A DNA stretch of 31,393 nt from Planctomycetota bacterium. GTDB taxonomy: Bacteria > Planctomycetota > Brocadiia > JAADGH01. This document shows positions 8,129 through 29,794 of this stretch, one piece after another. Location: contig JAADGH010000027.1 in the NCBI GenBank assembly GCA_013152475.1, positions 608 to 32,000 on the forward strand. Direction: 5' to 3'. Positions within the stretch are counted from its first letter, which is position 1. The number at the start of each line of letters is the position of its first letter. The translations under genes and the position numbers were made by a program. The notes beneath the pieces are model-generated. The model had not been told where the DNA came from. It ran no database searches and saw only the letters and a list, made by a program, of their open reading frames with translations.

Positions 8129-8167
8129 CTTTGTGACCGAGTACTTGAGAGAAAGACGGAGAACCTG

Positions 8168-11796: not shown

Positions 11797-11840
11797 TAGC
11801 TCTGAACAATAATTTGCCGGTTTTACAAAGGAGACATCCG

Positions 11841-14930: not shown

Positions 14931-16637
14931 TCACACCCCCTTCATCAACCAGTCCCGCTCGTGAAATACGGCGTCGAGGGCGCTGTCGAGATGGTCGTCA
15001 ATGATACTGCGCCAGTAGGTAACGGCATCGACGGGAACGGAGAACAGTAGGTCGTCGAAGTGGGAGAGTTTCTCGATCAGTCCTTCGAATATGCCGAAGG
15101 TGGACTTGCCGTGGAAGAGCAGCGGCTGCTGGCAGAGTCTTTCAAGTTCGAGCATGTGGTGGCGCATAGTCCTGTGGACATTCTTGAGCGCCTTGGGTTC
15201 TGTCTTGCTTTTGAGCACGCGCTGGAAGGCATTCCGAAAGGCCAAGATCAGGTCCTGCGCCTCAAGAAGGTGGCGCAGGCATTCGACGGCGTGCCGGCTT
15301 AGCTCATCGGCAGGCAGCTCGTCAGGCTCGATCGCTGCGGCCTGGCCCAGAAGGCGAAAGACCCCGCGCAAGTGTTTCGCGTTGAGACTATGTCTTGGGA
15401 CGATGTTGTGAAACACCGCATAGAGATGGGCAAGCACCGACTTCAATTCGCGTGCATTGCCGGGCCAGCGATAGGTTTGCAGTTCTGAGATGATGTCGGG
15501 GGGTAATGTCCAATTGCTGTTCCCTGTGATCTTTGCCCAGAATGCCTTGGCCAGCAAGGCCACATTTTCGGGGTTATCCTGGAGTCTCGGCGTGGAGATG
15601 ACGAACCATCGGAGGCGGTAGTACAAGTCTTCTCGAAACTGGCCGCTGTGAACCATGGACGGCAGATCGCGGTTGGTTGCGGCGATCACTCGAGCATTCA
15701 CAGGGGTCTCTTTCTGCTCACCAATTCTCCGGACCTTATGGTCCTGTATGGCACGCAATATCTTTGTTTGATGATCGAGCCTGAGTTCGCCAATCTCATC
15801 AAGGAACAGAATTCCATTCTGTGCGGACTGCCACAAGCCTACCTTATCCCTCGTCGCGCCGGTGAAGGCTCCCTTTATATAGCCGAATAGCTCCGATTCC
15901 AGCAGTTCGCTTGGAATGGCACCGCAGTTGACCGGTACGAAGGGCCCCCTTCTGAGCGGACCGAACGTGTGAATGCATTTTGCGACGAGCTCTTTGCCAG
16001 TGCCTGTATCGCCAAGGATGAGCACCGGGTTGTCGTCTTCTTTGGCGAGGACAATGAGTTTCCTAGCAAGTTCCACTTTTTTGCATGTGCCCACAAATCG
16101 TTCTGCAAGCGCCTTTGGGACCTCGACCTTGGCCAACAGAGAGATGGGCGACTCGTCTTTGCTCCCTGCCGGGTCATCCTGAAGGGCCTCCTTCCAGAGT
16201 TCCCGGAATTGATCTTCTGGAACAGCAATGAGGCAGGCCCGGAGCCGGTCGTTCCCTTCGGCCTTGGGATTAAGGAGGGCTTTGTCGGCTCTTTTAAGGA
16301 GGGCCTTTACGCCTCCCTTCAAATGCCCTGTTGTTCCGTATTTTGCGCGAATCAATCGAATTCCGTCTTGCCCCTTCAAAAGCCGGTAGAGCTCAATCTC
16401 TTCGTTTTGCACGCCTTTGTCGACAACAAGGTCATCGAGTTTTGTCAGTTGCTCAATGTCGATAGATGAGATGACGTAGGCCGTTGGCCGTTCCGGTGAG
16501 CACGCTTGCTTGAATGCTGTCTTAGTGTTCCATTCCGCTCTGCGGCATGCAAGATCTTTCTTTTTCGGTTCCTCGTCGGTTTTCGGCTCCCTGTTTGGAT
16601 CAAGAAAGAGCTCGACCGCACTTATGTTCATCTTCAT
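14931..16637 (-). CDS. sigma-54-dependent AAA+ transcriptional activator (bEBP) with unknown N- and C-terminal domains
   Basis: Walker A LILGDTGTGKELVAK. Sigma-54 contact loop YIKGAFTGA (GAFTGA). Walker B ILFLDEIGEL, then RVIAATNRDL, EDLYYRL, RWPGNARELKSV. GGAGGA RBS. No Fis-type HTH is recognisable in the ~150-aa C-terminus. Confidence 0.85.
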   Translation of the reverse strand: MKMNISAVELFLDPNREPKTDEEPKKKDLACRRAEWNTKTAFKQACSPERPTAYVISSIDIEQLTKLDDLVVDKGVQNEEIELYRLLKGQDGIRLIRAKYGTTGHLKGGVKALLKRADKALLNPKAEGNDRLRACLIAVPEDQFRELWKEALQDDPAGSKDESPISLLAKVEVPKALAERFVGTCKKVELARKLIVLAKEDDNPVLILGDTGTGKELVAKCIHTFGPLRRGPFVPVNCGAIPSELLESELFGYIKGAFTGATRDKVGLWQSAQNGILFLDEIGELRLDHQTKILRAIQDHKVRRIGEQKETPVNARVIAATNRDLPSMVHSGQFREDLYYRLRWFVISTPRLQDNPENVALLAKAFWAKITGNSNWTLPPDIISELQTYRWPGNARELKSVLAHLYAVFHNIVPRHSLNAKHLRGVFRLLGQAAAIEPDELPADELSRHAVECLRHLLEAQDLILAFRNAFQRVLKSKTEPKALKNVHRTMRHHMLELERLCQQPLLFHGKSTFGIFEGLIEKLSHFDDLLFSVPVDAVTYWRSIIDDHLDSALDAVFHERDWLMKGV

Positions 16638-16919
16638 GCCACGCTCCTCCGAGATTTCTCAGCGGTCCCCAGCTGTGAGTCCCTTTTAATGCTACTGTTG
16701 GCGTCAAACCGTGTCAACGATGAATTCGCTTTCTGTCTCAGCAATGGTTCACTCCCTGCGCCTTCTCAGCAGTTCCAGAGTAGCAGCGCAACTCAACGCC
16801 GTAGAGCCGAGGCTGAAGATAACTCAACCACAAGACTCAATTCTCTCTCGAGGACCTGACTGGACCTAAGCTGCGTGTCGGCAACGCCTTAGCAGAATTC
16901 TCCGATCCGTCGTTGAGCA

Positions 16920-16936
16920 TTGGCATAACTTGTGCA
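16920..16936 (+). promoter_or_regulatory. candidate sigma-54 (-24/-12) promoter
   Basis: TTGGCATAACTTGTGCA has GG (16922-16923) and GC (16934-16935) separated by exactly 10 nt, as in the TGGCAC-N5-TTGC consensus. There is one mismatch in each element. It lies about 70 nt upstream of the first operon gene (17007) and is divergent from the bEBP gene. Confidence 0.55.
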
Positions 16937-17006
16937 CATCCGGTCTGTCGTGAGACGGGGATCGTGGCGAGAGTTCAGGTCCCGGGAAACAAGGAAGTGA
17001 GACGAA

Positions 17007-17651
17007 ATGGTCATATGGATATTGGATCAATCAAGACACTGGAAACCTGTCGGGCTGAAAGACGGATTGATCAGCGTTGGCGTGAGCGATGGGCGAGCCG
17101 CCGTAGTGAGTCCAGATGAAGGCAATGCCGTGGCGTCGTTGATCCCTTACCAGGATCTCAATGGCCGCAGGCGCTGCTTTCTGATCTGCCGACGGGGTAG
17201 CCACGTGCGCTGCAAGGGCCTCCCTATTTTGGCGGGGGTACGGGTGCTTTCGGACAAAGATGAGATTGCGCTCGGCAACGGGCCGGAAGCGAGATTCTAC
17301 TATTCCCAGGAGTCCAAGCCGCAGATCGTGCCGTTCGAGGAGGGACCAAGGCCCACCTACTGCGCACGATCGAAGGCCAGGATCACCCAAGGCACTCCTG
17401 CGGTACAGTGCCCCTCGTGCGGGCTTTGGTACATCGAGACGGACGAGATGCCAGCGTACACCTACTGCGGGGAGCCCTGTGTGGGATGCGGGCGCCCGAC
17501 GACCACTGACTATTCGTGGGCGCCCGATCCCCTTCCCGCCCTACGACCAGAAGGCCAACGGTTATGGGAGAAGTGGTGTTCCCCCAGGACCATGAAACCG
17601 CAGGTGAGCAAACGGAGCAGTAAGGTGACTCCCGCAGCGGATTCGAGGTGA
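17007..17651 (+). CDS. hypothetical protein, FHA-like N-terminal domain plus CxxC...CxxC zinc ribbon
   Basis: LISVGVSDG...FLICRRGSHVRCKGLPILAGVRVLSDKDEIALGNGPEARFYY resembles the FHA strand pattern. C-terminal CPSCGLWY...YCGEPCVGCGRP. First gene after the sigma-54 promoter candidate. Confidence 0.6.
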   Translation: MVIWILDQSRHWKPVGLKDGLISVGVSDGRAAVVSPDEGNAVASLIPYQDLNGRRRCFLICRRGSHVRCKGLPILAGVRVLSDKDEIALGNGPEARFYYSQESKPQIVPFEEGPRPTYCARSKARITQGTPAVQCPSCGLWYIETDEMPAYTYCGEPCVGCGRPTTTDYSWAPDPLPALRPEGQRLWEKWCSPRTMKPQVSKRSSKVTPAADSR

Positions 17652-17657
17652 GACCAG

Positions 17658-18815
17658 ATGATTACACAGGAACGCTATTCGAGATTGAAAGCAATCTGGG
17701 GTGCACCCAATCTGTCTTGCCTCCGATCCAAGACCGTTATGGTCATCGGTTGTGGAAATCTCGGCGGGCAGATCATTCCGCACCTTGCGATGCTTGGCGT
17801 CGGTATGGTGCTTGTGGACCACGACCGGGTGAAAGCGCCGAACCTCGGGAATCAGGCGTTTGATGTGGCGCACATGGAAAAATCGAAGGTTTCCGGCCGT
17901 GAAGAGCAAGTGAAGAGGATCAACCCGGAGTGCAGAATCGAGACACTGGATGCGCGAGTTGAAGCCCTCGGTATGGGGGTGTTCCGAGATGTCGATATGG
18001 TGTTCTGCTGTTTGGACAATCTGGCCTCCCGTCTCTGGGTGAACGAGGCATGCCTTCGGTTGTCCGTGCCTTGGGTGGATGCCGCTCTGGATGGATCCGG
18101 CAAGACTACATATGCCAAGGTCGCCTGTTTTCCGAATACGGACGGGTCGGCCTGTTACCTCTGCTCGTGGGATGCGGACGCTCTGCAGGGGACTCTTCGC
18201 ACAGAAAATGGCGGATGCAAGTCCTGGTGGGACATCGGCAATGAAGATGCCCCTCCAACGCTGAGTTCATCGTGTCAAGCTGCAGTGGCGGCCGGCATTC
18301 AATGCGTTGCGGGACTTCGGATGCTGCTGGGCGATGGGGAAGCCGACTCCTCCCACGAGATCATCGTCAATCCAGAGGCAGGCTTCATGCGACGGGTGTG
18401 TCTGAAGGCGAATGTGGAGTCATGCATCGCGCCCCACGAGCCGTTCATGGATGTGGCAAGAGCGGGTGCTGGCCGCGCGTTGTCGGTCAACGACCTGTTC
18501 AGTCTGGCGGAGCGAAAGCTCGGCCCGGGTGTGGAGCTGGTCTTGCATGGGAGGGATTTGCTGACGACAGTCGATTGTGCAGCGTGCCAGAAAGGGAACG
18601 GTATCTGGCGGATGACCAATAACAGTGCGAAGAGCAAGATGACATGCCTGTGCGGAGCGCCGCTTACGCCGACTCCGCTGAGCGTGCTCAGGCAGATGGA
18701 CCGAGGCGCCGTGACGCCGATCCTGACACACACATGGGCGGAACTTGGATTGCCGCGGAAGGACATAGTCACCGCGAAGAAGAACGGTGCGAGTGTTCAC
18801 TTCCTCATCGAATAG
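17658..18815 (+). CDS. ThiF/MoeB-family E1-like adenylyltransferase
   Basis: RYSRL at the N-terminus. Rossmann VMVIGCGNLGGQIIPHLAMLGVGMVLVDHDRV. CCLDNLASRLWVNEAC (DN..R motif). Two CxxC pairs (CYLC, CAAC) as in the ThiF/MoeB zinc site. Only 6 nt after the previous gene. Confidence 0.85.
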   Translation: MITQERYSRLKAIWGAPNLSCLRSKTVMVIGCGNLGGQIIPHLAMLGVGMVLVDHDRVKAPNLGNQAFDVAHMEKSKVSGREEQVKRINPECRIETLDARVEALGMGVFRDVDMVFCCLDNLASRLWVNEACLRLSVPWVDAALDGSGKTTYAKVACFPNTDGSACYLCSWDADALQGTLRTENGGCKSWWDIGNEDAPPTLSSSCQAAVAAGIQCVAGLRMLLGDGEADSSHEIIVNPEAGFMRRVCLKANVESCIAPHEPFMDVARAGAGRALSVNDLFSLAERKLGPGVELVLHGRDLLTTVDCAACQKGNGIWRMTNNSAKSKMTCLCGAPLTPTPLSVLRQMDRGAVTPILTHTWAELGLPRKDIVTAKKNGASVHFLIE

Positions 18816-18828
18816 GAGCATCGACGAG

Positions 18829-19374
18829 ATGAAAGGCGAAGACAGCGTATTCAGGAAGTTCCTCGATAACAGCTACGACCGAGGACGCGAACTGGAACGG
18901 GAAAGTGATATCCTGCGAATCGAGGCGCGACGCGGGGAACCGCCGACGGGTTTTCTGTGCAGCTTTGTTGGTGTCGAACACTTGGTTCGAGATCCGGACG
19001 GCACGGTAGAGAAGTGCACAGACCCTATCCTGATCGAGGTGCAGTTCCCCCCGGACTACCTGAAGTCGTGCGATCCTCATCTGGGGCTGCGGGTTGTGGG
19101 GATGTTGAACCGGAACATCTTTCACCCCAACATCCGTCCCCCGGCAGTCTGTCTCGGGAATGCGCTCCGGCCCGGGACAACGCTCGACGAGATACTGAGG
19201 TACGTCTACGAGATTATCAGCTATCAGAACGTCACGCCGAACGAATCGGATGCATTCTCGGCAGAGGCGTGCCGTTACGTGAGAGAGCACCCGGGGGTGC
19301 TGAGCGGATTGCGCATTCCGCCTCTACGCAGGAGAAAGTTGAGGAACGTGACCACTACGGTGAGGTCGCTCTGA
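18829..19374 (+). CDS. E2-like ubiquitin-conjugating (UBC-fold) protein
   Basis: VQFPPDYL...NRNIFHPNIRPPAVCLG carries the HPN motif followed by Cys at the canonical E2 spacing. The track ORF from 18787 would overlap the E1 end. The ATG at 18829 is used here. Confidence 0.8.
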   Translation: MKGEDSVFRKFLDNSYDRGRELERESDILRIEARRGEPPTGFLCSFVGVEHLVRDPDGTVEKCTDPILIEVQFPPDYLKSCDPHLGLRVVGMLNRNIFHPNIRPPAVCLGNALRPGTTLDEILRYVYEIISYQNVTPNESDAFSAEACRYVREHPGVLSGLRIPPLRRRKLRNVTTTVRSL

Positions 19375-19391
19375 CGGGAGAAGTGGAAAAC

Positions 19392-20291
19392 ATGAACGAT
19401 GGAATTCACACACGTCTCTGGGGCCCAGGTACAGGAAGCCGCCCCCAGTCGCCTCTGGACAGGTTGGAGAAAGAGGTGAACGGATTTGTGAGGACACCGG
19501 ACGGTGCGGGCAGATTCGCCGTCGGAACCGCAGAGGTTGATGTGCGCCAGGACACGGAGCAGTGCCTGGTGCTCTCGGCCCCGCTCAGGAACGGATACGT
19601 CACGAAGATGGAGTTGTTGCGCCGTCAGCATTTCATCCAAGGTCCGTGCAAGTTCGCCGGCAATGGGCGGGGCAAGGTCCTGATCGCCGAGGCATTTCTG
19701 CGGCGTTCCAAAGAGCGGCTGATGGAGGCGTTCGAGGCGGCAACGGAGGGAATCGAGGCGGCAACACGCCTCGTTTCATGCAGCAACGCGAATTCCCAGG
19801 CGGCCCCCGGCTTCTTCCTGCGGGCAATCGACACGAAACAGAAAGACTTGGTGGAACGCTCGCTGGATGATCTCGGGGTGTCTGCGGCGCTTCGTGAAGA
19901 CGGCGTCTGGGCATGGTCTGTCGATACGAGCCGTCTACTGCATAGGATCCGGGTGAGGATTTCCGAAGGAAAGGAGAACTACTATGTTCATGTGGAAATC
20001 ACTGGCGACCCTTTGGGGACGCTTCTATCGACCGAGAGCCAAGAGGCCGTGGCCCGATTTGTTCTCGAAGCGAATCACAGCCTCCGTTTCGCTCGTTGCT
20101 CTGTGGCCGATGTTGAGAACGATTCCGGCCCCATGTTTCTTGCGGAGGCGGTCGTGCCGATAACCTTGTTCGACCATGAGCTGGCCAAGGCCATGATCGA
20201 CAGCGTTGTAGTGGCAGGGGAACAGGTTCGCGATGAAATCAACGCACTATGTCAGCCTGATGTCGCCCGCGCCTACCTCGGGATGCGGTGA
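19392..20291 (+). CDS. hypothetical protein (299 aa) embedded between E2 and Ubl genes
   Basis: Uninterrupted frame starting MNDGIHTRLW at the ATG at 19392, 17 nt after the E2 stop. The 444-aa track ORF from 18957 is an upstream extension through the E2 gene. No catalytic motif recognised. Confidence 0.65.
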   Translation: MNDGIHTRLWGPGTGSRPQSPLDRLEKEVNGFVRTPDGAGRFAVGTAEVDVRQDTEQCLVLSAPLRNGYVTKMELLRRQHFIQGPCKFAGNGRGKVLIAEAFLRRSKERLMEAFEAATEGIEAATRLVSCSNANSQAAPGFFLRAIDTKQKDLVERSLDDLGVSAALREDGVWAWSVDTSRLLHRIRVRISEGKENYYVHVEITGDPLGTLLSTESQEAVARFVLEANHSLRFARCSVADVENDSGPMFLAEAVVPITLFDHELAKAMIDSVVVAGEQVRDEINALCQPDVARAYLGMR

Positions 20292-20330
20292 TACTGGGTC
20301 TCGTGGAAAAATGGAAGGAGGTGAAGGAAT

Positions 20331-20597
20331 ATGGGAGAGCCAAGAGGGTTCATCAGATCATTGTCCGTGACGGATTGGAACCAACAGAAACGAGTGGATT
20401 TCGACGGGAAGATCGAACTGGACAGCTCTGTGGGAGAGATACTGAAGGAAGCGGTCCACAGGCTCGACCTGCCGCGGAACACGGCCTACAGCGCCGTCTT
20501 GGAGGGAAGAAAGCTGATCAACAGCGAAACCCTCGACAAGGCCGGCGTGAAAGAAGCCGACGAGATCATGGTCACCCCCGAGGTGACTGCCGGATGA
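20331..20597 (+). CDS. small ubiquitin-like (beta-grasp-sized) protein ending in Gly
   Basis: 88 aa, with a strong RBS (GGAAGGAGGTGAAGG) upstream. The C-terminus is ...MVTPEVTAG-stop, so a C-terminal Gly is exposed without processing. It sits between the E2 and JAB genes. Confidence 0.7.
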   Translation: MGEPRGFIRSLSVTDWNQQKRVDFDGKIELDSSVGEILKEAVHRLDLPRNTAYSAVLEGRKLINSETLDKAGVKEADEIMVTPEVTAG

Positions 20598-20744
20598 TCG
20601 GCAGGATCGATACGGCTACGGACCTCACGTTTCTTCAGTCTCGGCAGTGAGCCCCAAGCGCCGATGGCGGGCGAATATGGAGATGGCTGGGCTCCCGCGA
20701 AGGGGTAGCGGGAAGCTCCAGCCGGACAATAGGCATGTGATCGT

Positions 20745-21842
20745 ATGGAAAGGAAAGCTACGGTGAGTATTCCGGCAGCAGCGACCTCTCAGAACAAGTA
20801 CACGTTCACGCTTGAGTTGGCCGATCTGGAGCTGACCAAGATTTTGCACCGGGAGCCGCTCCAGGCCGTCTCCAGACTTGTCGAGCACTTCATTTTCGAG
20901 GTGCGATGCCGCGGACTCATTGATGACGGTGCGGAGGATCCCCCGTCCGAGGTGATCCCGGTCTGGTCGGGCGGTTCCGAAGGCCCGTTCGTCAATGGCA
21001 TCCGTGTGCGTCTCGACTTCAACGGAGACAAGGATGCTGTGGTGAAGGACTTCGGCATCACACACTTTGCCAGCCAAGCCCGTACCGTTGCGTCCAACCT
21101 GATTGTGCGCGGTGTGCTCAAGCAGGACGAGCGATTCCACTATCTGATCAGCGCGTTGCGCAGTGATGTGCAGACCGAAACGAGCGGCCAAGAGCCAAAA
21201 CGAGGATTCCACACCTCCGTTCGGACGCCGAGAATCGCGTTTCTCCCAACGCCTCTCGCCTCTCTGTCGTCCACTCTCGCCACAGATGAGGCGCAGGAGA
21301 AATTCTTGGATGTCTTGATTCCCAGGGTGGTCGCCGACGAGATCCTTGGGCGTGTCGAGCAGTCCAATGAAGACGAATTGGGCGGATTCCTGATAGGCAA
21401 CCTTTGTCGCGATCCATCGTCCGGTCGGGCATTTGTGCTGGTGAACGCGCAGGTTGAGGCCCGCGAAGGGACCGAAGCGACGTGCACGAGCTTCAAGTTC
21501 ACCGACCGAACATTCCTGGCGGCATCTCACTGTCTCCAATCGCGACGGCGAAAGGGCGAGCGCATCGTGGGCTGGTACCATAGCCATGTGTTCTGCAGGA
21601 AGTGCGAGAAGCGGAACACATGTGACGTCGGCACCGTGTTCTGGTCGCAGAGCGACCAGACGGTACACGAGTCGGCATTCCCACACCCCTACCAGTTCGG
21701 TTTGGTGGTGGGCTACGGTGGCGGCGCCAAGAACACCGGAAACGGCCCATACGCATTTAAGTTGTACGGTTGGCGGGACTGCATGATTACCGAACGACCG
21801 GTCACCATAGTGAATGGAGTGGATGATGGTGAAGCAGAATAA
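20745..21842 (+). CDS. JAB/MPN (JAMM) metallopeptidase with ~190-aa N-terminal extension
   Basis: JAMM elements are present: EDELGGFLIG (Glu), GWYHSH (HxH), WSQSD (SxxD). A Cys-rich insert FCRKCEKRNTCD lies between HxH and SxxD. Confidence 0.8.
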   Translation: MERKATVSIPAAATSQNKYTFTLELADLELTKILHREPLQAVSRLVEHFIFEVRCRGLIDDGAEDPPSEVIPVWSGGSEGPFVNGIRVRLDFNGDKDAVVKDFGITHFASQARTVASNLIVRGVLKQDERFHYLISALRSDVQTETSGQEPKRGFHTSVRTPRIAFLPTPLASLSSTLATDEAQEKFLDVLIPRVVADEILGRVEQSNEDELGGFLIGNLCRDPSSGRAFVLVNAQVEAREGTEATCTSFKFTDRTFLAASHCLQSRRRKGERIVGWYHSHVFCRKCEKRNTCDVGTVFWSQSDQTVHESAFPHPYQFGLVVGYGGGAKNTGNGPYAFKLYGWRDCMITERPVTIVNGVDDGEAE

Positions 21843-23520
21843 AGACGAAGACATCCTGAAGGTGCTGCTGGGTGAGGAGCTTCCGGCAGCGGAAGAAGAC
21901 AGCCGGCTGGAGAGGCTCCTCAGCGGTGATCCGCCGAAGGGCGTTCTGGTGGAGATGTTGCTGCGCGCCACCAACCAGAAGCGCAAGCTCGAGTTGGGCC
22001 TCCAGGAGGCAAAGAAGCTGGATCAAAAGAAGAGCAAGTTGATCCAGGAGTTGACGGCTCTTCCGTGGTATCCGGCGAAGTTTGTCAGGCGATGCGACAA
22101 CATGCCCGGGAAGGTCTATGTTTCTGTGGGTCACAGCGAGATGCTCGTCGGCTGCGCCAACGGGATTCGCCCGGATGAGCTGCGTCACAGCCAAACGGTT
22201 CTCCTGTCGCACGAGAGGAACTGTATCGTCGGCGTCGATGACTGCCCTTCGCGCTTTGGCGATATCGGCACGGTGGATCGTGTGCTGGGGGAACAGGCCA
22301 TTCTGAAAATCAATGAAGCCGAGGAGATTCGCGTGGGTCTCTCCGATGAACTGCGGGCGGACCCACCGAAGACGGGAGACCGGGTGATATACGACCGAGG
22401 CCTGCTTCTCGCTTTGGAGATTCTTCCCAAGCAAGAGGAGGAGAGCTCTATTCTGGAGGACGTTGACAGCTCGATCAGCTTCGACATGATTGGCGGACTG
22501 GATGACGTAATCGATCAGATCCTCGAAGACGTGGCCCTCCATCTGTTCCACCGTGACCTGGTGCGGGAGCATCGGCTCCGCCCTTCAAAAGGCATTATCC
22601 TGGCGGGACCGCCTGGGGTAGGGAAGACGATGATTGGGAAAGCGCTTGGCACGTTTCTGAAGTCACAGGCGGTCACATCCGGGGAAGTGAAGTTCTGCGC
22701 CCTCCCCCCGGGATCGTTCCGGTCACACTATTATGGGATGACGGAGCAGCGAATCCGGCAGGTTTTTCGGGTCTGCAGGGATTTCTCGAAACGCAAAGAC
22801 GGCAACCGATGCATTCTCTTCTGTGACGAACTCGATACATGGGGGCGTCGCTCCGCAGACGTCACGAACAGCGTGGATTCGAGGGTGCTGACGTGCTTCC
22901 TGAGCGAAGTGGATGGGCTTGATGAGACCGGAAACATCTTTCTCATTGGGGCGACAAACCGGGCGGACGATCTTGTGGATTCCGCCCTTATGCGGCCCGG
23001 GCGCTTTGGCGACAATATCCTTCGCATCCCCCGTCCCGGACGCGAAGCAATCCGCGACATCTTCGGGAAGTATCTCACCCCCGACCTGCCCTTCAGGCGC
23101 AACGGACACCGGGCGTCGCAGGCGGAAGCCGCCGAGATTGCGGCCGAAATCATCGATGCCGCAACATCGAGAATCTTCCGCGCCAATGATGACGCGAGGA
23201 TTGCCACGTTGATCATGCGTGATGGGTCGCGGCGCGACGTTCATGCCCGGGAGATCATATCGGGGGCCATGTGTGAGAATATCGTCCGCCGCGCGAAGGT
23301 GAGATCGTGTGTGCGTGGACTTGCGGAAGAAACGGGCATCACGCCGGCCGACGTGATCGAGGCAGTGGACGACGAAGTGACCTCGGCGGCACGCTCTCTC
23401 CGATCTCCGAGCAATGCCAGGGCGGTGCTCGGCTTGAGTAGTGACAACGATATTGTGCGCGTGGAGTTTCCTTCGGATGGCGCCGAGCACATTCGCCCTC
23501 ATCGTTATGTTCGAGCGTGA
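21814..23520 (+). CDS. Mpa/ARC/PAN-like AAA+ unfoldase (coiled coil - OB-like - classical AAA)
   Basis: Coiled coil NQKRKLELGLQEAKKLDQKKSKLIQEL, then a beta-rich segment. Walker A ILAGPPGVGKT, pore loop HYYG, Walker B ILFCDELD, sensor LIGATNR, RPGRFG box. Overlaps the JAB stop by 29 nt, with alternative ATGs at 21823 and 21826. Confidence 0.85.
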   Translation: MEWMMVKQNKDEDILKVLLGEELPAAEEDSRLERLLSGDPPKGVLVEMLLRATNQKRKLELGLQEAKKLDQKKSKLIQELTALPWYPAKFVRRCDNMPGKVYVSVGHSEMLVGCANGIRPDELRHSQTVLLSHERNCIVGVDDCPSRFGDIGTVDRVLGEQAILKINEAEEIRVGLSDELRADPPKTGDRVIYDRGLLLALEILPKQEEESSILEDVDSSISFDMIGGLDDVIDQILEDVALHLFHRDLVREHRLRPSKGIILAGPPGVGKTMIGKALGTFLKSQAVTSGEVKFCALPPGSFRSHYYGMTEQRIRQVFRVCRDFSKRKDGNRCILFCDELDTWGRRSADVTNSVDSRVLTCFLSEVDGLDETGNIFLIGATNRADDLVDSALMRPGRFGDNILRIPRPGREAIRDIFGKYLTPDLPFRRNGHRASQAEAAEIAAEIIDAATSRIFRANDDARIATLIMRDGSRRDVHAREIISGAMCENIVRRAKVRSCVRGLAEETGITPADVIEAVDDEVTSAARSLRSPSNARAVLGLSSDNDIVRVEFPSDGAEHIRPHRYVRA

Positions 23521-23547
23521 AGCGACCGAAGAAAGGCAGGAATTCCG

Positions 23548-25254
23548 ATGGCAGTCAAGAAGATCACCGGCGCCGACATCGAGTTTGGCAACAGCATCGT
23601 GGGCCGAAAGTCAGGTTCCCAAAGCACGTCATATGAAGCGTGTCAATATCTCTTGAATGAGGTGGATGGGATCGCACCGCTTTCGGGATGGCGCAATAAT
23701 GTGGGATTCTACCAGACGCATTACGCCACATGCGGGACGGAATTGCCCAATAGCGGGGTATGGGGGAATGCCACCAATGCCCACACACAAGGCAGCGCCT
23801 ACAACTATCGCGACTACGGGCGAAAGTGGCGCAACTACTGCATCTATGGTGACTTGGGCCATTGTGAAGGCTGCCTACCAGAGACCACATCGGCCTTCGA
23901 CCACGTTGCCGCCCTCCACGGCCTCTACAATCTGGTCGAGAATCTCATGAGGCAGGCCAACGAGAAACTCCCCGACGGACAAGAGTTGTTTGTAACGGCG
24001 AATAACTCGGATGGGTCCAGGGTGTCGAGTTGGGGGGCACATTTCAATGTGCTGATCACGCGCAACTTGCGGAGACAGATTTTCACGCGAAAACCTCACA
24101 AGCTTGGAATGCTTGCGTCATTCTTCGCTTCCTCGGCGCCGCTCTTCGGCCAGGGCCATGTATTGAGGCGGAGGGACGGCAAGTCGAAGTTCGTTCTGTC
24201 CTCCCGGGCCCATCAGACCGGCGTTCTGGTCGATCCCTCTACGACCGTCCCGTTTCGCCGTCCGATTGTGAACTCCCGGGACGAACGGCACGCCTCAGAA
24301 GACCTGGCGCGCCTGCACATCATCTGCTACGACGCCAATCTGCAGCAGATAGGAACGCTGCTGAGGGTGTGGCTTACCCAAGCTTTCCTCGCCGCCATGG
24401 AGGAGGGATTCTTCGACTCGAAACTGCTGCTGGATGATCCTGTGGCGGCCTTCCGCTGCTGGTCAGGAGGGTTCTCGGTCACTACGGGCAGAATCGAGAG
24501 GAAATGCCGTTTGGCCTTTGGGGGGAAGATATCGCCCGTTGAGTGGTTCATGGCCCTGACGGAGGCACTGGTGAACATGCACGACGCCGGTCTGCTTCCG
24601 GAGGAGATCGTTCCGGACACAGATCGGATACTGCCAATCTGGATTGACTCGCTCCGGAAATTCGCGGAAGGCAACGTGACCGCCCTTGCGAAGCGCTTCG
24701 ATTGGGCTCTGAAGCTGACGATCCTGGACCGTCAAATGTCGGAGCATGGCTTCGACCTGCAGTCGCCGGAAGCCGCGCTCCTGAACCAGATGTACGCTCA
24801 TATAGACAAGGAACGAGGTCTGTACTTCGCCCTGGAGAAGGCCGGTTTTCTGGAGACCGCCGTACGCCCCCAGAGAATCGCGTTCATGCAGGCAAACGGC
24901 CCTATGGATACGAGGGCCTTCGCCAGGAAGTCAATCATTGAGAAGTTCTCGGATAACATTCGGCGAATCGACTGGGGGAAAATCACGTTGGAGATTCCCA
25001 GCAACAACGGCTGGGGGAGTCGGAAGACAATACTCCTCGACCATCCCGGTCACTACACTCAAGCGGAGGTCGGACAACTGATTGAGGAGTGCCGCACAGT
25101 AGAGGACCTCTGCAGAGCCATGGAAACGCATGATCCGAACACTGTGCGGTCGTCGTCCCTTGTGGTGCGGGACTGCGGCAGCGTAGAACCCGGATGTTGC
25201 GGCACTGAAACGCAGTGGCCTAACAGGGGAGAACAGGAGACCCAGAGGAAATGA
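23548..25254 (+). CDS. Pup-ligase/Dop family (PafA-like) protein 1
   Basis: Three segments match my recollection of M. tuberculosis PafA:
- KKITGADIEFG (cf. PafA RIMGIETEFG).
- ANNSDGSRVSSWGAHFNVL (cf. KNNTDSAGNSYGCHENYL).
- RPIVNSRDERHA..LARLHIICYDANLQQIGTLL (cf. RPIINTRDEPHA..RRLHVIVGDSNMSETTTML). Confidence 0.8.
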   Translation: MAVKKITGADIEFGNSIVGRKSGSQSTSYEACQYLLNEVDGIAPLSGWRNNVGFYQTHYATCGTELPNSGVWGNATNAHTQGSAYNYRDYGRKWRNYCIYGDLGHCEGCLPETTSAFDHVAALHGLYNLVENLMRQANEKLPDGQELFVTANNSDGSRVSSWGAHFNVLITRNLRRQIFTRKPHKLGMLASFFASSAPLFGQGHVLRRRDGKSKFVLSSRAHQTGVLVDPSTTVPFRRPIVNSRDERHASEDLARLHIICYDANLQQIGTLLRVWLTQAFLAAMEEGFFDSKLLLDDPVAAFRCWSGGFSVTTGRIERKCRLAFGGKISPVEWFMALTEALVNMHDAGLLPEEIVPDTDRILPIWIDSLRKFAEGNVTALAKRFDWALKLTILDRQMSEHGFDLQSPEAALLNQMYAHIDKERGLYFALEKAGFLETAVRPQRIAFMQANGPMDTRAFARKSIIEKFSDNIRRIDWGKITLEIPSNNGWGSRKTILLDHPGHYTQAEVGQLIEECRTVEDLCRAMETHDPNTVRSSSLVVRDCGSVEPGCCGTETQWPNRGEQETQRK

Positions 25255-25300
25255 GCAGTGACCTGACGCGGAAGATGGACCCGATTGACGAAAGGAGCAC

Positions 25301-25516
25301 ATGATGAGTGGCGAAAGAGAAATATTCCGTCGTCGTCCAGGAAGCAACGATCCAAACGATGAATTGAATGGCCCAGATGCCGAGCGACTTCAGAATGCAA
25401 GGAACCAAGCTGGGGATTTTGACTCGGTTATCGGGCGGGCCCTTGCGTCTTTGCGAAACCAGAAGAACTCGGCAGAGAACATCCTGAAGTCCATAAGAAA
25501 CCCGGGCGGAGAATAA
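25301..25516 (+). CDS. Pup-like small protein modifier ending in GGE
   Basis: 71 aa, with AAAGGAG 3-6 nt before ATGATG. Polar and low-complexity N-half. The C-terminus NSAENILKSIRNPGGE-stop resembles M. tuberculosis Pup ENAEDFVRAYVQKGGQ, with the AE at the same distance from the end. The stop lies 1 nt before the next start. Confidence 0.7.
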   Translation: MMSGEREIFRRRPGSNDPNDELNGPDAERLQNARNQAGDFDSVIGRALASLRNQKNSAENILKSIRNPGGE

Positions 25517-25517
25517 G

Positions 25518-27098
25518 ATGGAAGAAGAAGTATTCATCCTGGGTTCGGAGCATGAACTGGCGGCGGCGATGTTTCCACCTCACGGCGGGCTGGGGCACAT
25601 CAGCAACGATATTGCTCACGAAGTGATCCAGCGGGAACTAAAGAGCTCCGGCGTTCCGTATCTGTTCGATACCTCTCGATCGGGCTTGTTCCTCTACCTC
25701 GGTCGGATCTACATGGACCCGACGGGACACCACGTGGAATTTGCCGTCTGTCCGGCAGGGTCGCCGCACGAAGTCGTTCAAACCGAGGCGAAGATGATCC
25801 GTCTGTTGCGCGACGCTATACGGTGGGTGCAAGTGCACTTGTCCGGCTTTGCGCTTGTTCACAACAACTACGATTACATTACGCACTCTACGTGGGGCCA
25901 GCACTGCAACTATGCCATCCAGGTGCCGCTTGATGCCCTCGAACGGGCGCTCGTCCCTTTCCTTGTTACCCGCCAGGTCTTCGCCGGGCCCGGTTCGGTT
26001 GGATGCAACGACCACGGGATGGACCTGAATCCAAGGACGCACTTCATATCGCGCACAACCGGGGGCGAGACGACGAGCAGTCGGAGCATCTATTCCACCG
26101 CACGGAATGAGCCCTTGATGGTGTCCTCCCGCTTCCATCACCGGCTCCACCTCATTTCCGGATGCTCGCTTATGAGCCAATTCGGACAATGGCTGAAGCT
26201 GGGCACTACCGCTTTGGTGATCCGGGCGGCGGAAAAGGATCCGACCATCGGCGATGCGGTTGCCTTTGCAGATCCCGTCCGTGCGATAAAGACGCTGAGC
26301 GTCTTAACTCCGGACCGGAAACATCTCTTCGATCCGCACTTGCTGAAGGTGCAGAAACACTATGTTCGAGTTGTAGCGGACATGCTCCAGGAAGGTGATT
26401 TTCCGAAGTGGTGCTTCGATATCTGGAGAGCGTGGCACGATACCCTCAAAAGACTCGAAAGCGATCCGATGGCACTGGATCGTCGGCTGGACCCATACAT
26501 CAAACTCAGACTATTCGGCCGCTTCCTGCAGGAACGAGGAAAACGGTGGCACCACGTGAGCGAAGACGAAAGCCTCTACTACGATCTCGCGTTGCTGGAT
26601 GTCCGATACCACGCCCTCTCTGGCGGTTTGTTCGAGATGCTGGATGCAGAAGGCGTGCTCGAACACAAGCTTGTGTCGGATAGGGAAGCAACGCCCGGCA
26701 GCGAGGATGATCCATATGTGCTCACCGGCCTGCCAAGGGAATCCTTCAGGGGGCGAATGATCAAGAAGCTGAATGGGCGGTCGCAGTTCCGCTGCGATTG
26801 GCAGCATATCACTGACATGGAGCGGAGGCAATATCTGGAGATGCACGACCCTTTGGAAACGCCCCGGGGGCGATGGCAGCGGATGATGACGAGAGAACAA
26901 GATGCTTTTCGCATCTCTCTCGTTTCAGAAGGAGAGCTGCGTTCACCGTCTCGGCGAGCAGGCCCCCCGCCATCGGGCCGGACACCTCGTGATAGTCTTC
27001 CCCGAGTCATTAGAGAGCTGCTGGAGGCACGCGAACACGAACTCGATGAGGTGCGACTGAGGGCGCGTCAACAGGCGCGAGAACGCCCCGGGCAGTAG
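25518..27098 (+). CDS. Pup-ligase/Dop family (PafA/Dop-like) protein 2
   Basis: FILGSEHEL, RIYMDPTGHHVEFA (cf. RLYLDVGSHPEYA), STWGQHCNYA, LVPFLVTRQVFAGPG (cf. LLPFLVTRQLICGAG), HRLHLISGCSLMSQFGQWLKLGTTALVIRAAE (cf. [31 protein letters not shown]). Confidence 0.8.
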   Translation: MEEEVFILGSEHELAAAMFPPHGGLGHISNDIAHEVIQRELKSSGVPYLFDTSRSGLFLYLGRIYMDPTGHHVEFAVCPAGSPHEVVQTEAKMIRLLRDAIRWVQVHLSGFALVHNNYDYITHSTWGQHCNYAIQVPLDALERALVPFLVTRQVFAGPGSVGCNDHGMDLNPRTHFISRTTGGETTSSRSIYSTARNEPLMVSSRFHHRLHLISGCSLMSQFGQWLKLGTTALVIRAAEKDPTIGDAVAFADPVRAIKTLSVLTPDRKHLFDPHLLKVQKHYVRVVADMLQEGDFPKWCFDIWRAWHDTLKRLESDPMALDRRLDPYIKLRLFGRFLQERGKRWHHVSEDESLYYDLALLDVRYHALSGGLFEMLDAEGVLEHKLVSDREATPGSEDDPYVLTGLPRESFRGRMIKKLNGRSQFRCDWQHITDMERRQYLEMHDPLETPRGRWQRMMTREQDAFRISLVSEGELRSPSRRAGPPPSGRTPRDSLPRVIRELLEAREHELDEVRLRARQQARERPGQ

Positions 27099-27151
27099 AG
27101 CACAAACGGGGATGACATCCCCTTCTGAGGAGTTGCGGAAACGGAGCAGGA

Positions 27152-28303
27152 ATGGATCTCGACGATGTTCTCATGAGGGAACTGAAGGGACAAGGGGTGA
27201 AGCTCGACGCCCGCGATCGAGACACCCTCATCCTCTACGGTGTCCCCGTGAGCGCACAATACAGCAAGTCCCATGTCAACCTGCTCGTCAAACGGTCACG
27301 AGAAAAGCTGTTTTTCTGTTTTGCCGATCAGGATTTGGCGTATCAGGGGCAAGATCCGGCTATATGTCGCTTGTTCGGCGGTGAAGGGGTCAAGCGCGAA
27401 GGCTGGCGATGTCTCTTTGCAGACCATTCAGATCGTACGTTCCAGGGGGCGGTTGAGCGTGCGTTGTCCATCCTGGGGTTTTTGGCAGAGCCACGTCTTC
27501 CTCCTCCCAACGTACATGCACAAGGCGGCTGCCAACTGCTGAACGCCTTCGCCAGGGACCTTTCCGGAGAAATCCGGGAAGGCATGGCGGAGCCGACAGT
27601 CGGTCGAGAGAAAACGGTCGCGGAGGTTACCATGTGCCTGCGGCGCATGGGAGGGGCCAAACTCGTGATCGTTGCCGGCCCGCCGGGCGTCGGCAAGACG
27701 AACCTATGCAGCGCAGTCGCGGCTCGACTTGCGGAATGTTGCCCGACCCTTGCCATGTGGTCGGTGGATCTCGGCCTCCTCTTCGCCGGGACACTCTTCG
27801 ACGCGGAACGGGAGGGCCTATTGATGAATCTCCTGAGTGAGACGATCGAGAACAACGGAACCGGCCTCGTTCTTGCGATGGAACATCTGGAACTGACGCT
27901 TCGTTCCCCATGTGGTCCGGATATTCTGACCCACGCGTTGAACTCCAACGCAAGGATCGTCGGGGTCACAACGGCCGAGCACCTGCGTCATATCCCCCCT
28001 GCGTTGGCCAGGCGCGCGCACGTGATCGAGCTTGCCGGTCTGTCACCGACCCAGACGCTCGGAGTGCTGAGAGCCCATGCGGAAAGGTTGGCAAAGCATC
28101 ATGGGGTGCAGATTCCTGACGCGTGCCTGCCTGCATGCGTCAAAGCGGTCCAAGAGCTGCCAGGCAACCTGCCGGCCAAGGCCTTGCTCATACTGGACAC
28201 GGCAGCCGCCAACGTGGCGCTGTCGAGTGCCGGAGTGGTTAGCGTGGACGACATCTACTTCGCCGCAAGGCTCTGCGAGAAGAGCGCGGAACGCCTTCCC
28301 TGA
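27152..28303 (+). CDS. ClpA/ClpB D1-like single AAA+ module with unknown (possibly E2/UEV-like) N-terminal domain
   Basis: GREKTVAEVTMCLRR...LVIVAGPPGVGKTNL (Walker A). VDLGLLFAGTLFDAEREGLLMNLLSE (cf. Clp LDxxxLxAGxxxRGEFEERL). RIVGVTTAEHLRHI..PALARRAHVIEL (cf. IGATTxxEYR...ALxRRFQxV). HHGVQIPDACL...LPAKALLILDTAAA (cf. LPDKAIDLLDEA). The Walker B position reads LVLAMEHL. Confidence 0.7.
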   Translation: MDLDDVLMRELKGQGVKLDARDRDTLILYGVPVSAQYSKSHVNLLVKRSREKLFFCFADQDLAYQGQDPAICRLFGGEGVKREGWRCLFADHSDRTFQGAVERALSILGFLAEPRLPPPNVHAQGGCQLLNAFARDLSGEIREGMAEPTVGREKTVAEVTMCLRRMGGAKLVIVAGPPGVGKTNLCSAVAARLAECCPTLAMWSVDLGLLFAGTLFDAEREGLLMNLLSETIENNGTGLVLAMEHLELTLRSPCGPDILTHALNSNARIVGVTTAEHLRHIPPALARRAHVIELAGLSPTQTLGVLRAHAERLAKHHGVQIPDACLPACVKAVQELPGNLPAKALLILDTAAANVALSSAGVVSVDDIYFAARLCEKSAERLP

Positions 28304-28332
28304 AAAAAACTCGTATTCTCAGAAACGTGGGG

Positions 28333-28338
28333 TATAAT
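28333..28338 (+). promoter_or_regulatory. candidate sigma-70 -10 box
   Basis: Perfect TATAAT in the 137-bp gap between the ClpA-like gene and the first TIR-TM gene. The -35 is poor (CTCGTA at 17 nt spacing). Confidence 0.3.
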
Positions 28339-28440
28339 AGGGTCGCCTGGTCGTGGGGAAGCCGTTGTTCCCACCATTCTTCACGGGGGCAACCGAAACC
28401 TGCGAGTGACACAATGAAAGCGTGAACGAGGGAGGGCCAC

Positions 28441-29286
28441 GTGAAGCAGGGGGCACGAAGAAGAACCGGCGGCCGGCAACAGGTCTTCATCAGCTACCGG
28501 CGCGAGGGCGGCGCTGAGTTAGCCCGCTTGGTGCGAAATAGCTTGGTGCAGCGAGGCTATCGAGTGTTCATGGATGTGGAAGACCTGCGCACCGGTCCCT
28601 TCAATAAGGCCCTTGCGGAGTGCATCAGGTTTTGTACGGACGTGGTGATCATTCTGACTCCAGGCAGTCTTGATCGTTGCTTCAACCAAGGGGATTGGGT
28701 CAGACTCGAGATTGCCTATGCCCTCCAGCAGAAGAAGAACATCATTCCTGTGATGGCTCGGGGTTTCGAGTGGCCGCCGAAGCCGCTTCCGAAGGATATT
28801 GGCGGTCTGCCGCTCTTCAACGCCCTCACACCCGCCCACGAAATCTTTGACGCCAGTATGGACAAGCTTGCGTCCCTGCTCCATGCGCGCCCACGCAAGA
28901 TGGCCCCAAAGCTGCTTCTCTGTGGAGCTGCAATCGCTGCCGTGGTCGCGGTCACGCTTTTCATGGTTTTACCGTCATCTGACCGAGCGAAACAGAGCCC
29001 AGTTGAGCAGACACTCAAGGATAAGAAGCCTACGAAAGACAAAGAGGCGGGGACTCCGCGTGATGCGGCCAAGGACTTGGGCCGGAAACGCCAGCAACCA
29101 CCTCTACCTCCTCTGTCTCGAATGGGCGGTCGCGAAAGACCTTTCTGCGAAACCCTATCCGGAGAAGAAGCCCTTGTGGACGTTCCAGAAACGGTAGAAG
29201 GGGATAGCGTATGTGCCGCGTGGCGTATCCATTGCGGAGGTGAAACCAATCGGAGGGATGGACGTGTTGTTCTTCACGGCCGATGA
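28441..29286 (+). CDS. TIR-domain protein with one transmembrane helix
   Basis: QVFISYRREGGAELARLVRNSLVQRGYRVFMDVEDL...DVVIILTPGSL...WVRLEIAYAL...NIIPV is a TIR with the conserved Glu. TM helix LLLCGAAIAAVVAVTLFMVL. GTG start. The 3' end overlaps the next ORF. Confidence 0.8.
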   Translation: MKQGARRRTGGRQQVFISYRREGGAELARLVRNSLVQRGYRVFMDVEDLRTGPFNKALAECIRFCTDVVIILTPGSLDRCFNQGDWVRLEIAYALQQKKNIIPVMARGFEWPPKPLPKDIGGLPLFNALTPAHEIFDASMDKLASLLHARPRKMAPKLLLCGAAIAAVVAVTLFMVLPSSDRAKQSPVEQTLKDKKPTKDKEAGTPRDAAKDLGRKRQQPPLPPLSRMGGRERPFCETLSGEEALVDVPETVEGDSVCAAWRIHCGGETNRRDGRVVLHGR

Positions 29287-29788
29287 ACACTATGGGCACG
29301 CCCACATCATCCACCTCTGCGGGCGGCCTTTTCGGACGGTGGAGGAAATGGACGAGGAGCTGATACGGCGCCACAATGCCGTCGTGAAGGACAGCGACCT
29401 CGTCGTCCATGTGGGGGACTTCACCCTCAAGAACAAGAGCCGGGCCAAATCGTACATCTCCCGCCTCAAGGGGGAACACGTCTTTCTCCGTGGAAGCCAC
29501 GACAGATGGCTGAAGGAGGCGCATGAGATTTGGGAAAAGGAGATCGCGGGAGAATACGTCGTCGTTTGCCACTACGCCATGAGAGTATGGCCGAGATCGC
29601 ACTACAACAGCTGGCAGCTCTACGGCCATTCCCACGGCAGACTCGATCCCATCGGCAAGCAGTGGGACATCGGTGTGGACAACAACGACTATTATCCCGT
29701 ATCCTTTGAGCGGATAAAAGATATCATGGCGGAGCGGCCGGACAATCCCAATCTGATCAAGGGCGGCAAACCGCGGACCCGCCGTTGA
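29213..29788 (+). CDS. calcineurin-like metallophosphoesterase
   Basis: FFTADEHYGH (motif I), VVHVGDF (GD), FLRGSHD (GNHD-like), LYGHSHG (GHxH). The start is ambiguous: GTG 29213, GTG 29240 or ATG 29258. Confidence 0.75.
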   Translation: MPRGVSIAEVKPIGGMDVLFFTADEHYGHAHIIHLCGRPFRTVEEMDEELIRRHNAVVKDSDLVVHVGDFTLKNKSRAKSYISRLKGEHVFLRGSHDRWLKEAHEIWEKEIAGEYVVVCHYAMRVWPRSHYNSWQLYGHSHGRLDPIGKQWDIGVDNNDYYPVSFERIKDIMAERPDNPNLIKGGKPRTRR

Positions 29789-29794
29789 AAGGGC

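Follow-up and report, generated by a model that had tools for sequence, protein, structure and literature searches.

Can two ways of marking proteins for an unfoldase that are regarded as mutually exclusive be encoded in a single bacterial operon? Ubiquitin-type tagging proceeds via an E1 adenylate and thioester and uses a beta-grasp tag. Pupylation proceeds via a gamma-glutamyl phosphate formed by enzymes of the glutamine synthetase fold and uses a disordered tag. The two are the textbook case of convergent, mutually exclusive solutions. The question is raised by a contig of a Planctomycetota bacterium (JAADGH010000027.1), of which 31,393 nucleotides were analyzed; this whole stretch is called the window. 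An earlier reading, made from the sequence alone (the sequence-only reading), had described eleven packed plus-strand genes at 17007-28303 of the window, in which one transcription unit couples E1, E2, ubiquitin-like protein (Ubl) and JAB genes with AAA, Dop/PafA and Pup-like genes. Our analysis upholds this coupling, and we consider it probable, if by no means certain, that the genes form a dual-tag cassette: two complete tagging systems of unrelated chemistry around a proteasome-type AAA+ unfoldase.

All eleven open reading frames (ORFs) are intact and present at these coordinates. We named them g1 to g11 in their order on the plus strand:

17007-17651, plus strand: g1, 214 aa, protein with an FHA-like N-terminal region and a Cys-rich, Zn-ribbon/treble-clef-like C-terminal part; family matches all sub-threshold.
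17658-18815, plus strand: g2, 385 aa, ThiF/MoeB-type E1 (PF00899, 1.7e-33).
18829-19374, plus strand: g3, 181 aa, predicted UBC-fold E2 with HPN and Cys108; an alternative GTG start lies at 18787.
19392-20291, plus strand: g4, 299 aa, protein with a YbjN-like C-terminal domain (PF10722, 5.7e-4, below the Pfam cutoff).
20331-20597, plus strand: g5, 88 aa, predicted beta-grasp Ubl modifier; C-terminus ...PEVTAG.
20745-21842, plus strand: g6, 365 aa, JAMM/MPN+ metallopeptidase (PF01398, 3e-5; PF14464, 9e-5).
21814-23520, plus strand: g7, 568 aa, Mpa/ARC/PAN-like unfoldase built of a coiled coil, an OB domain and an AAA+ domain (PF00004, 1.8e-24; TIGR03689, 2.5e-84).
23548-25254, plus strand: g8, 568 aa, PafA/Dop family, Dop architecture (PF03136, 1.2e-64).
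25301-25516, plus strand: g9, 71 aa, predicted Pup-like modifier; C-terminus ...IRNPGGE.
25518-27098, plus strand: g10, 526 aa, PafA/Dop family, PafA architecture (PF03136, 1.4e-54).
27152-28303, plus strand: g11, 383 aa, ClpB/Hsp104-D1-like AAA+ protein (AAA_lid_9, 4e-8; ClpB D1, 2e-39).

The intergenic spacing ranges from -29 nt (g6/g7, 21814-21842) to +147 nt, exactly as the sequence-only reading had given it. Within 16400-28700, promoter- and terminator-like consensus sites were not commoner than in shuffled sequence, and none lay at the junction of the ubiquitin half and the Pup half. Because g6 and g7 overlap by 29 nt, g9 and g10 are separated by 1 nt and the junction has no promoter or terminator, a single transcription unit is supported, as far as sequence features can tell.

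The same arrangement recurs elsewhere. Contigs and loci that carry the cassette or relatives of its E2 family are designated here by L-numbers, which are labels of this analysis. By tblastn (27-59% identity), all eleven genes were collinear in L004, L005 and L007, ten in L089, and parts in L091 and L088. Both halves also occur together in L172, L173 and L175, and the L171 contig ends 26 codons into a g8-like gene. Around three members of the g10 subfamily, the contigs carry all eleven genes in an unchanged order, and their flanks are unrelated. Besides the window, which comes from a metagenome-assembled genome (MAG) of Planctomycetes, the carriers include Nitrospiraceae (L005, L009) and Candidatus Hydrogenedentota (L008, L089); further cassette contigs are L004, L007, L091, L171-L173 and L175. 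The order is thus kept in about ten independent contigs, which is far beyond chance, and the two halves are not accidental neighbors. The cassette is nevertheless rare: among 185,579 species-representative genomes only two close relatives of g10 were found (Candidatus Hydrogenedentota and Nitrospiraceae), and metagenomes yielded a handful more. Because the distribution is patchy across phyla and the flanks are unrelated, horizontal spread is suggested; rarity and patchiness fit an accessory, horizontally moving function.

A sister variant defines the core of the cassette. In L169/L170 and L174, homologs of g1-g7 stand in order and there is no PF03136 gene. Four genes occupy the position of the Dop, Pup and PafA genes (L169:11155-13774, L174:10624-13200): a protein of about 105 aa ending in G[EQ]KG, an unknown protein of about 270 aa, a PRTRC_A-like JAB protein and a 250-aa ThiF protein. 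This replacing module resembles the PRTRC-type ThiF plus JAB set, which is not present in the window, with matches that are all below cutoff (PRTRC_A 9e-11, PRTRC_ThiF 7e-9); the 105-aa protein gave 10.6% against ThiS/MoaD in hhalign, a value too low to assign it a beta-grasp fold. The core is thus g1-g7, AAA+ included; its 3' conjugation module exists in at least two alternative forms, of which the Pup genes are one. Because g1-g7 occur without a Pup ligase in L169 and L174, the g7 ring belongs with the ubiquitin-type genes. The sequence-only reading had placed this Mpa-like ATPase in the pupylation half, and that placement has to be given up.

Among the ubiquitin-type genes, the E2 was studied by both profile and structure comparison. 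HPN...C-L-G is invariant in five orthologs of g3, and the five-ortholog profile matched E2 enzymes only when compared with PDB sequences (UBE2S, 0.004). Exhaustive HMMER search gave at least 346 clusters of relatives, and 179 of these fell below 1e-10. Conservation reaches 90% or more at H99, P100, N101, C108 and G110 when 150 relatives are aligned. Pfam UQ_con was reached by seven relatives, and no other family was matched. Against UBE2D2/UBC9/UBE2N, the hhalign probability was 94.9% across 96 columns. An AlphaFold2 (AF2) model built with the family alignment had a predicted local distance difference test score (pLDDT) of 95.6 and a predicted template modeling score (pTM) of 0.89; the single-sequence version (pLDDT 35) was set aside. 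When this model was compared with PDB by Foldseek, the best 50 matches were all E2 enzymes (probability 1.00, template modeling score 0.50-0.67), the closest being canonical eukaryotic E2s. A tblastn search of plasmids with g3 gave zero matches. Profile and model comparisons thus identify g3 as a UBC-fold E2 with HPN and the putative catalytic Cys108.

The putative E1, g2, contains one ThiF domain (residues 8-237). In eight orthologs D54, N62, Q66, K77, D120, C166, C169, C187, C307, C310, C330 and C332 are invariant; the protein has the ATP/Mg residues, a CxxC Zn site, a crossover-loop Cys187 and a C-terminal CxxC...CxC (Cys4) domain. Cys187 is the candidate catalytic (thioester) Cys. The modifier g5 has only a weak Pfam match (Ubiquitin_5, 0.0087), and its profile gave zero matches to PDB sequences. 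In hhalign, g5 matched Ub/NEDD8/SUMO at 78.8% (E 1.6e-5), with its terminal Gly (G88) falling on G76 of ubiquitin. Nine orthologs have the PEVxAG pattern in common, with C-terminal AG in eight and LG in the ninth, and 0-17 residues follow the conserved AG. From this alignment, g5 is predicted to be a beta-grasp Ubl with a C-terminal Gly. Because precursors extend up to 17 residues past AG, a processing peptidase is required.

For such a peptidase, g6 is in place directly 5' of the AAA+ gene in all loci read. Its PF01398 match is above cutoff and its JAMM motif E...HxH...SxxD is complete, with E211, H279, H281, S301 and D304 invariant in eight orthologs. A Cys-rich insert sits between HxH and SxxD, and the N-terminal domain (about 1-180), of unknown type, is likewise conserved among orthologs. 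A word-index search with g6 gave almost no homologs though orthologs exist, which reflects the limit of the search and not orphan status. The nearest g6 relative is labeled Rpn8/Rpn11-like by JGI, and the nearest relatives outside the cassette family lie within operons of E1, YukD-like Ubl, E2-FHA, JAB and vWA genes (L001, L002).

The remaining two genes of this half are less clear. The sequence-only reading had labeled g1 an FHA-like/Zn-ribbon protein. Five invariant Cys residues (C119, C135, C138, C158 and C161) agree with the second part of this label, but the FHA and RING matches are all sub-threshold (Prok-RING_1, 0.027 and 0.04 in two orthologs; FHA, 0.23; KIF13B FHA, 0.46; RNF126 RING, 0.88), and the label is weakly supported. 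Orthologs of g1 occur in L004, L005, L007, L089, L169 and L172, and probably in L171, and g1 is a candidate target-recognition or E3-like factor. For g4, a YbjN match was obtained in three of five orthologs, in each case below the Pfam cutoff; its N-terminal half is unknown, and its profile found no relative among PDB sequences. With orthologs at 27-31% identity, g4 is a conserved accessory protein.

The unfoldase g7 matches AAA and Prot_ATP_ID_OB_C (6.5e-9), and its best NCBIfam model is pup_AAA TIGR03689 with 284 bits (cutoff 505). Its Walker A and B motifs are invariant, and so is the Tyr-Gly of the pore loop. A helical N-terminal segment stops at the invariant Pro84; that it is a coiled coil was judged from the sequence by eye. 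The g7 orthologs do not have an HbYX/GQYL tail: their C-termini are ...YVRA, ...FVRQ and ...WVQG, with no penultimate Tyr. Moreover, no Proteasome-family (20S prcA/prcB) gene was found in any locus read. Because 20S genes and a docking tail are both missing, tagged proteins would be unfolded, disassembled or passed on to host proteases.

The second AAA+ protein, g11, consists of a unique N-terminal domain and one ClpB/Hsp104/ClpC D1-like AAA+ module (profile against PDB sequences). It retains Walker A, the ClpB ALERRxQ motif and the aromatic pore residue, and hhhhE[RH] replaces hhhhDE at Walker B. From these motifs, g11 probably binds ATP and hydrolyzes it poorly. The gene is present in L004, L005, L007, L088 and L173; L089 has a truncated copy, and L091 and L175 have none. 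Thus g11 is an optional accessory gene. L088 and L089 are 94% identical over g10 and diverge 3' of it: a full g11 is found at L088:2672-3847, and L089:11398-11700 has about 30 first codons of g11 followed by a stop and unrelated sequence, as if the gene had recently undergone deletion or rearrangement.

The Pup-type module contains two PF03136 proteins far above the 25-bit cutoff, and both also matched Dop in PDB (g8, 1e-37; g10, 1e-29). In NCBIfam, g8 scored 188 bits with Dop TIGR03688 (cutoff 492) versus 156 bits with PafA. The score of g10 with PafA TIGR03686 was 140 bits versus a cutoff of 551, below equivalog level. In a neighbor-joining tree both clades fall outside the canonical PafA and Dop clades, and g10 and its orthologs form a tight subfamily (P0006-P0012, 39-50% identity) clearly apart from ordinary PafA/Dop. 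Residues were compared with 39 canonical PafA/Dop members, with the Dop loop defined as in PMC7947786. The insert at the Dop-loop position is 72-81 residues in g8 and 40-42 residues, PafA-like, in g10. Orthologs of g10 retain GxExE, the catalytic Asp/Glu, HxE, NN.D, HE and TRQ, and those of g8 retain most canonical invariant polar residues. From insert length and gene order, we take g8 as the candidate deamidase/depupylase and g10 as the candidate ligase.

The g9 gene sits between these two genes, matching the dop-pup order. Its seven orthologs are 61-74 aa long and all end in G-[EQ] (three with E, four with Q). In hhalign g9 matched Pup of Mycobacterium tuberculosis and M. smegmatis at 49.7% (E 1.7e-4), the last 32 residues being aligned C-terminus to C-terminus; its profile gave chance matches only among PDB sequences. 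Judged by its end, alignment and position, g9 is predicted to be a Pup-like modifier. Four of the seven peptides have a terminal Gln, which makes a deamidase necessary; the sole candidate is g8. Two orthologs have no Lys at all, and Lys61 of g5 is not conserved across the wider Ubl family. The lack of a conserved acceptor Lys in either modifier argues against mixed chains.

Two observations concern contigs other than the window. The Dop-like gene of L005 is split by gene calling into pieces of 158 and 481 aa (7230-9676), and in L006, whose g10 protein P0010 is identical to that of L005, it is intact with 602 aa (3294-5102); this discrepancy is probably an assembly or frameshift difference. In L173 a second Pup_ligase-family gene of 693 aa (20114-20717, minus strand) runs past the locus end, just beyond a sigma-54 activator gene, and may belong to a second system.

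The protein assignments of the sequence-only reading, other than that of g1, were therefore borne out: the ThiF-type E1, the HPN-Cys E2, the 88-aa Ubl ending in Gly, the JAMM peptidase, the Mpa-like coiled-coil/OB/AAA+ protein, the two PafA/Dop-family proteins (23548-25254 and 25518-27098 both fall in PF03136), the 71-aa Pup-like protein ending in GGE and the ClpA/B-D1-like ATPase.

The analysis shows which genes are present, their folds, their catalytic motifs and their conserved linkage; the biochemical steps, the order of the tags, the targets and the cellular role proposed here would follow, by analogy, from the established action of each protein family. JAMM g6 would trim Ubl g5 and expose its C-terminal Ala-Gly. 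E1 g2 would adenylate the Gly of g5 and then hold g5 as a thioester on Cys187, from which Cys108 of E2 g3 would receive it and transfer it to target lysines; g1 and g4 would probably select these targets. In the second branch, g8 would deamidate the terminal Gln of g9 (where it is Gln) and might also take the tag off, and g10 would phosphorylate the terminal Glu at its gamma-carboxylate and then ligate g9 to lysines. The g7 ring would capture tagged proteins at its coiled-coil/OB end and thread them via its pore, with g6, encoded beside it, acting at the entrance of the pore in the manner of Rpn11 on the 19S cap. Tagged proteins would end up unfolded, disassembled or inactivated, or would be passed to host proteases, as in proteasome-less Corynebacterium. 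With its crippled Walker B, g11 may be an optional holder or adaptor.

Several points weigh against this dual-tag proposal. The H-E-N motif has no Glu in g8 and the T-R-Q motif no Arg; both residues are 95-100% conserved in canonical PafA/Dop, and g8 could be a pseudo-enzyme or adaptor. In g10 of the window, C130 and C216 replace Glu and Asp of canonical enzymes and most orthologs; L007 has a Cys equivalent to C216 in common with it, and these residues may point to a change in metal use, or to an inactive enzyme, in this MAG. The choice of g10 as ligase depends solely on gene order and insert length, and in some loci g8 and g10 are both nearer to Dop than to PafA by hidden Markov model (HMM) score. 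The g9 match to the Pup profile reaches only 50%, and g9 has no match to Pfam Pup (PF05639) or to any other Pfam or NCBIfam family. The ring is equally Mpa-like where there is no Pup-like gene at all (pup_AAA, 278-279 bits in L169/L170 and L174). A 20S proteasome could lie elsewhere in the genome, as its absence covers the loci only. Finally, neither g1 nor g4 matches any family significantly.

A further step would be an obligate two-tag logic. The ubiquitin-type core (E1, E2, Ubl, Rpn11-like JAB and two adaptors) and its AAA+ ring would always be joined by a second reversible module whose chemistry is interchangeable (Pup-type in most loci, ThiF plus JAB in others), and both marks might be needed, or one might license the other, before unfolding. 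We put this forward tentatively and think it rather doubtful. If it is true, the cassette would be the first natural system in which ubiquitin-type and Pup-type tags cooperate, and a bacterial, precursor-like analogue of the 19S cap without a 20S core.

How does the dual-tag cassette relate to known systems? It resembles the Pup-proteasome system of Actinobacteria in having two PF03136 paralogs, of which only one has a Dop-size insert, a short G-[EQ]-ending modifier between them, an upstream CC-OB-AAA+ ring (CC, coiled coil) and the same gene order. Like proteasome-less Pup systems (Corynebacterium, and the Pup/PafA neighborhoods of Plesiocystis and Rhodopirellula described by Iyer et al. 2008; PMC2588565), it has no 20S genes. 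In contrast to Pup systems, all four of its Pup-type proteins fall below the NCBIfam equivalog cutoffs and outside the canonical clades, its ring has no GQYL tail, its modifier has no Pfam Pup match, and its Pup module shares one operon with E1/E2/Ubl/JAB genes, which is unreported for any Pup locus.

With BilABCD (Type I/II Bil) the cassette shares separate Ubl, Cys-E2, JAB and E1 genes and, in some members, C-terminal processing of the Ubl. However, the Bil E1 is a multidomain IAD-AAD-CYS protein (PMC11601596), whereas g2 has a single ThiF domain with a crossover-loop candidate Cys; Bil has four genes without AAA+, PafA/Dop, g1 or g4, whereas the cassette has eleven; and g3 is structurally most similar to canonical eukaryotic E2s. 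The hallmarks of Bub (6E/DUF6527) are the DUF6527 serine protease BubE, Ser in place of Cys in the E2, and fused Ubl-E2 or E2-E1 proteins. In contrast, the cassette has no DUF6527 match, its E2 has Cys108 and its genes are separate. It also differs from type II CBASS Cap2/Cap3, in which an E2-E1 fusion adjoins a CD-NTase and an effector: of g2, only the ThiF part is matched by PADLOC E1-E2 models, and no nucleotidyltransferase gene is present in the cassette.

Bacterial E1/YukD-like Ubl/E2-FHA/JAB/vWA-RING operons were reportedly described by Burroughs et al. in 2011. A Ub/E1/E2/small-RING/Rpn11 operon is known from Caldiarchaeum (PMC5654768, PMC3082918). These eukaryote-like prokaryotic operons share with the cassette an HPN-Cys E2, an MPN+ JAB, a ThiF E1 and a small Ubl, and possibly the FHA/RING-like parts of g1. 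However, vWA/RING genes are found there, an AAA+ ring and a Pup module are not, and the RING and FHA matches of g1 are sub-threshold. The 19S particle (Rpn11 with the Rpt ring) and the archaeal SAMP/UbaA/JAMM systems with PAN or Cdc48 would be functional analogues, in that a beta-grasp tag, an MPN+ isopeptidase and a CC-OB-AAA+ ring occur as a set and the JAB and ring genes adjoin. Unlike them, the cassette has no 20S genes or docking tail.

Proteasome-less Pup loci and E1/E2/JAB operon families (6A-6E, Bil, Bub, CBASS) were known already (PMC2588565, PMC1779556, PMC11601596, PMC10557695, PMC11354881). In these same comparative papers no E1/E2/Ubl set is linked to a proteasomal-type AAA+. The statement of the sequence-only reading that two such chemistries in one transcription unit are undescribed also held: we found no description of the combination in the full-text literature that was searchable here, a coverage outside which Burroughs et al. 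2009 and 2011 fall. The cassette is a new operon family built from known protein families. It offers a natural system for asking how one machine reads two tags, with a proteasome-free output for both. A bacterial E2 structurally closest to canonical eukaryotic E2s is tied here to a proteasomal-type ATPase, which bears on the origin of the ubiquitin-proteasome connection, and about 350 clusters of an unannotated E2 family gain genomic context.

What cellular role might the cassette have? Defense against phages or other mobile genetic elements, of the Bil type, is a serious candidate, although we rate it below an even chance. In such a role one or both tags would be placed on invader proteins (for example, virion parts) and the ring would pull assemblies apart; it is compatible with the dual-tag mechanism and, if true, would be a new effector principle, tag and unfold. 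The characterized bacterial E1/E2/JAB operons (CBASS type II, Bil) are all antiviral (PMC11601596), and the patchy phylum distribution with unrelated flanks suggests horizontal transfer. The neighborhood of the cassette in the window also points in this direction. The 3' flank (28441-30823) encodes a TIR_2 protein of 281 aa, a Metallophos protein of 191 aa and a TIR_2/ThsB-like protein of 342 aa, and the 5' flank (11254-14537) encodes a NUDIX protein of 180 aa and a 907-aa protein with RelA_SpoT, TPR, SLOG (LSDAT_prok) and RyR domains. In L169, an HsdM-type methylase gene lies downstream and an Avd-like gene upstream. The sequence-only reading had argued for a defense role from the TIR, SLOG, RelA/SpoT and NUDIX neighbors. 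These neighbors are real in the window, as their domain matches show. However, TIR homologs were found in none of the other cassette loci read, and SLOG, NUDIX and TIR domains were absent among the listed neighbor genes of those loci, where most flanks are metabolic or transport genes. Because other loci do not have such neighbors, the inference fails to generalize. In addition, PADLOC system models gave only generic E1, JAB and AAA matches for the cassette proteins, plasmid matches were zero, and the activator gene described below has homologs beside only two other copies.

Housekeeping or stress proteostasis is conceivable but questionable. Here the cassette would act as a Pup-ARC-type pathway that needs no proteasome, like that of Corynebacterium, with the Ubl branch as a second layer of substrate selection for remodeling the cell's own complexes. 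The AAA-Dop-Pup-PafA order equals the actinobacterial mpa-dop-pup...pafA order, proteasome-less Pup/PafA neighborhoods are known in a planctomycete and a deltaproteobacterium (PMC2588565), and the flanks of most loci are ordinary metabolic ones. Regulation is also relevant. A divergent sigma-54 activator-type gene (enhancer-binding protein, EBP) lies at 14931-16637 on the minus strand; GAFTGA is present and there is no HTH_8 match. At 16921-16936 (plus strand), 70 nt upstream of the g1 start and inside the 369-nt gap common to g1 and this gene, TGGCATAACTTGTGCA forms a sigma-54 -24/-12-like element with the correct GG...GC spacing and two mismatches. When all cassette loci were searched for the activator, it was found only in L173, as a full-length homolog beside the cassette (36% identity over 519 aa, non-AAA ends included), and in L172, as a fragment; the -24/-12 element was searched for upstream of g1 in four other loci and was not found. 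An activator-type gene thus adjoins the cassette in three loci, which suggests regulated rather than constitutive expression. However, the great rarity of the cassette (the two close g10 relatives mentioned above) and its scatter over phyla are unlike a core pathway.

In a third explanation, which we consider unlikely, one tagging system would modify parts of the other as a switch, for example by pupylation of the E2/Ubl machinery or by attachment of the Ubl to the ring or ligase. CBASS Cap2/Cap3 is a precedent, a bacterial E1/E2/JAB set that modifies an enzyme of its own system (PMC11601596), and the second ThiF plus JAB module in the Pup position of two sister loci suggests that the slot needs a second reversible modification and not Pup chemistry. 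However, there is no conserved acceptor Lys, the two Lys-free Pup-like orthologs and the variable Lys61 of the Ubl being the instances. Chance juxtaposition, or a biosynthetic E1 set for a sulfur carrier (ThiS/MoaD-type) beside a Pup locus, is barely credible and was rejected: ThiF-family E1s are mostly biosynthetic (as are the top NCBIfam names, all far below cutoff), but the eleven genes are collinear across contigs of several phyla with overlapping junction genes, g3 is a Cys-E2 with a confident UBC fold, the JAMM peptidase is intact, and no sulfurtransferase or cofactor-synthesis gene lies within the cassette.

Some minor features of the window remain to be mentioned. Thoeris-like signaling combines a TIR half and a SLOG half; in the window the genes for the two lie 14 kb apart with the cassette between them. 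A 691-aa TrkA_N protein with a C-terminal RyR domain is encoded at 8168-10243, and RyR is again C-terminal in the RelA_SpoT-SLOG protein, 1.6 kb downstream of this gene; the recurrence of the domain suggests that the two proteins have a ligand or partner in common. A DUF4417 protein (491-1183, 4e-52), encoded at the left end of the window, is unrelated to the cassette.

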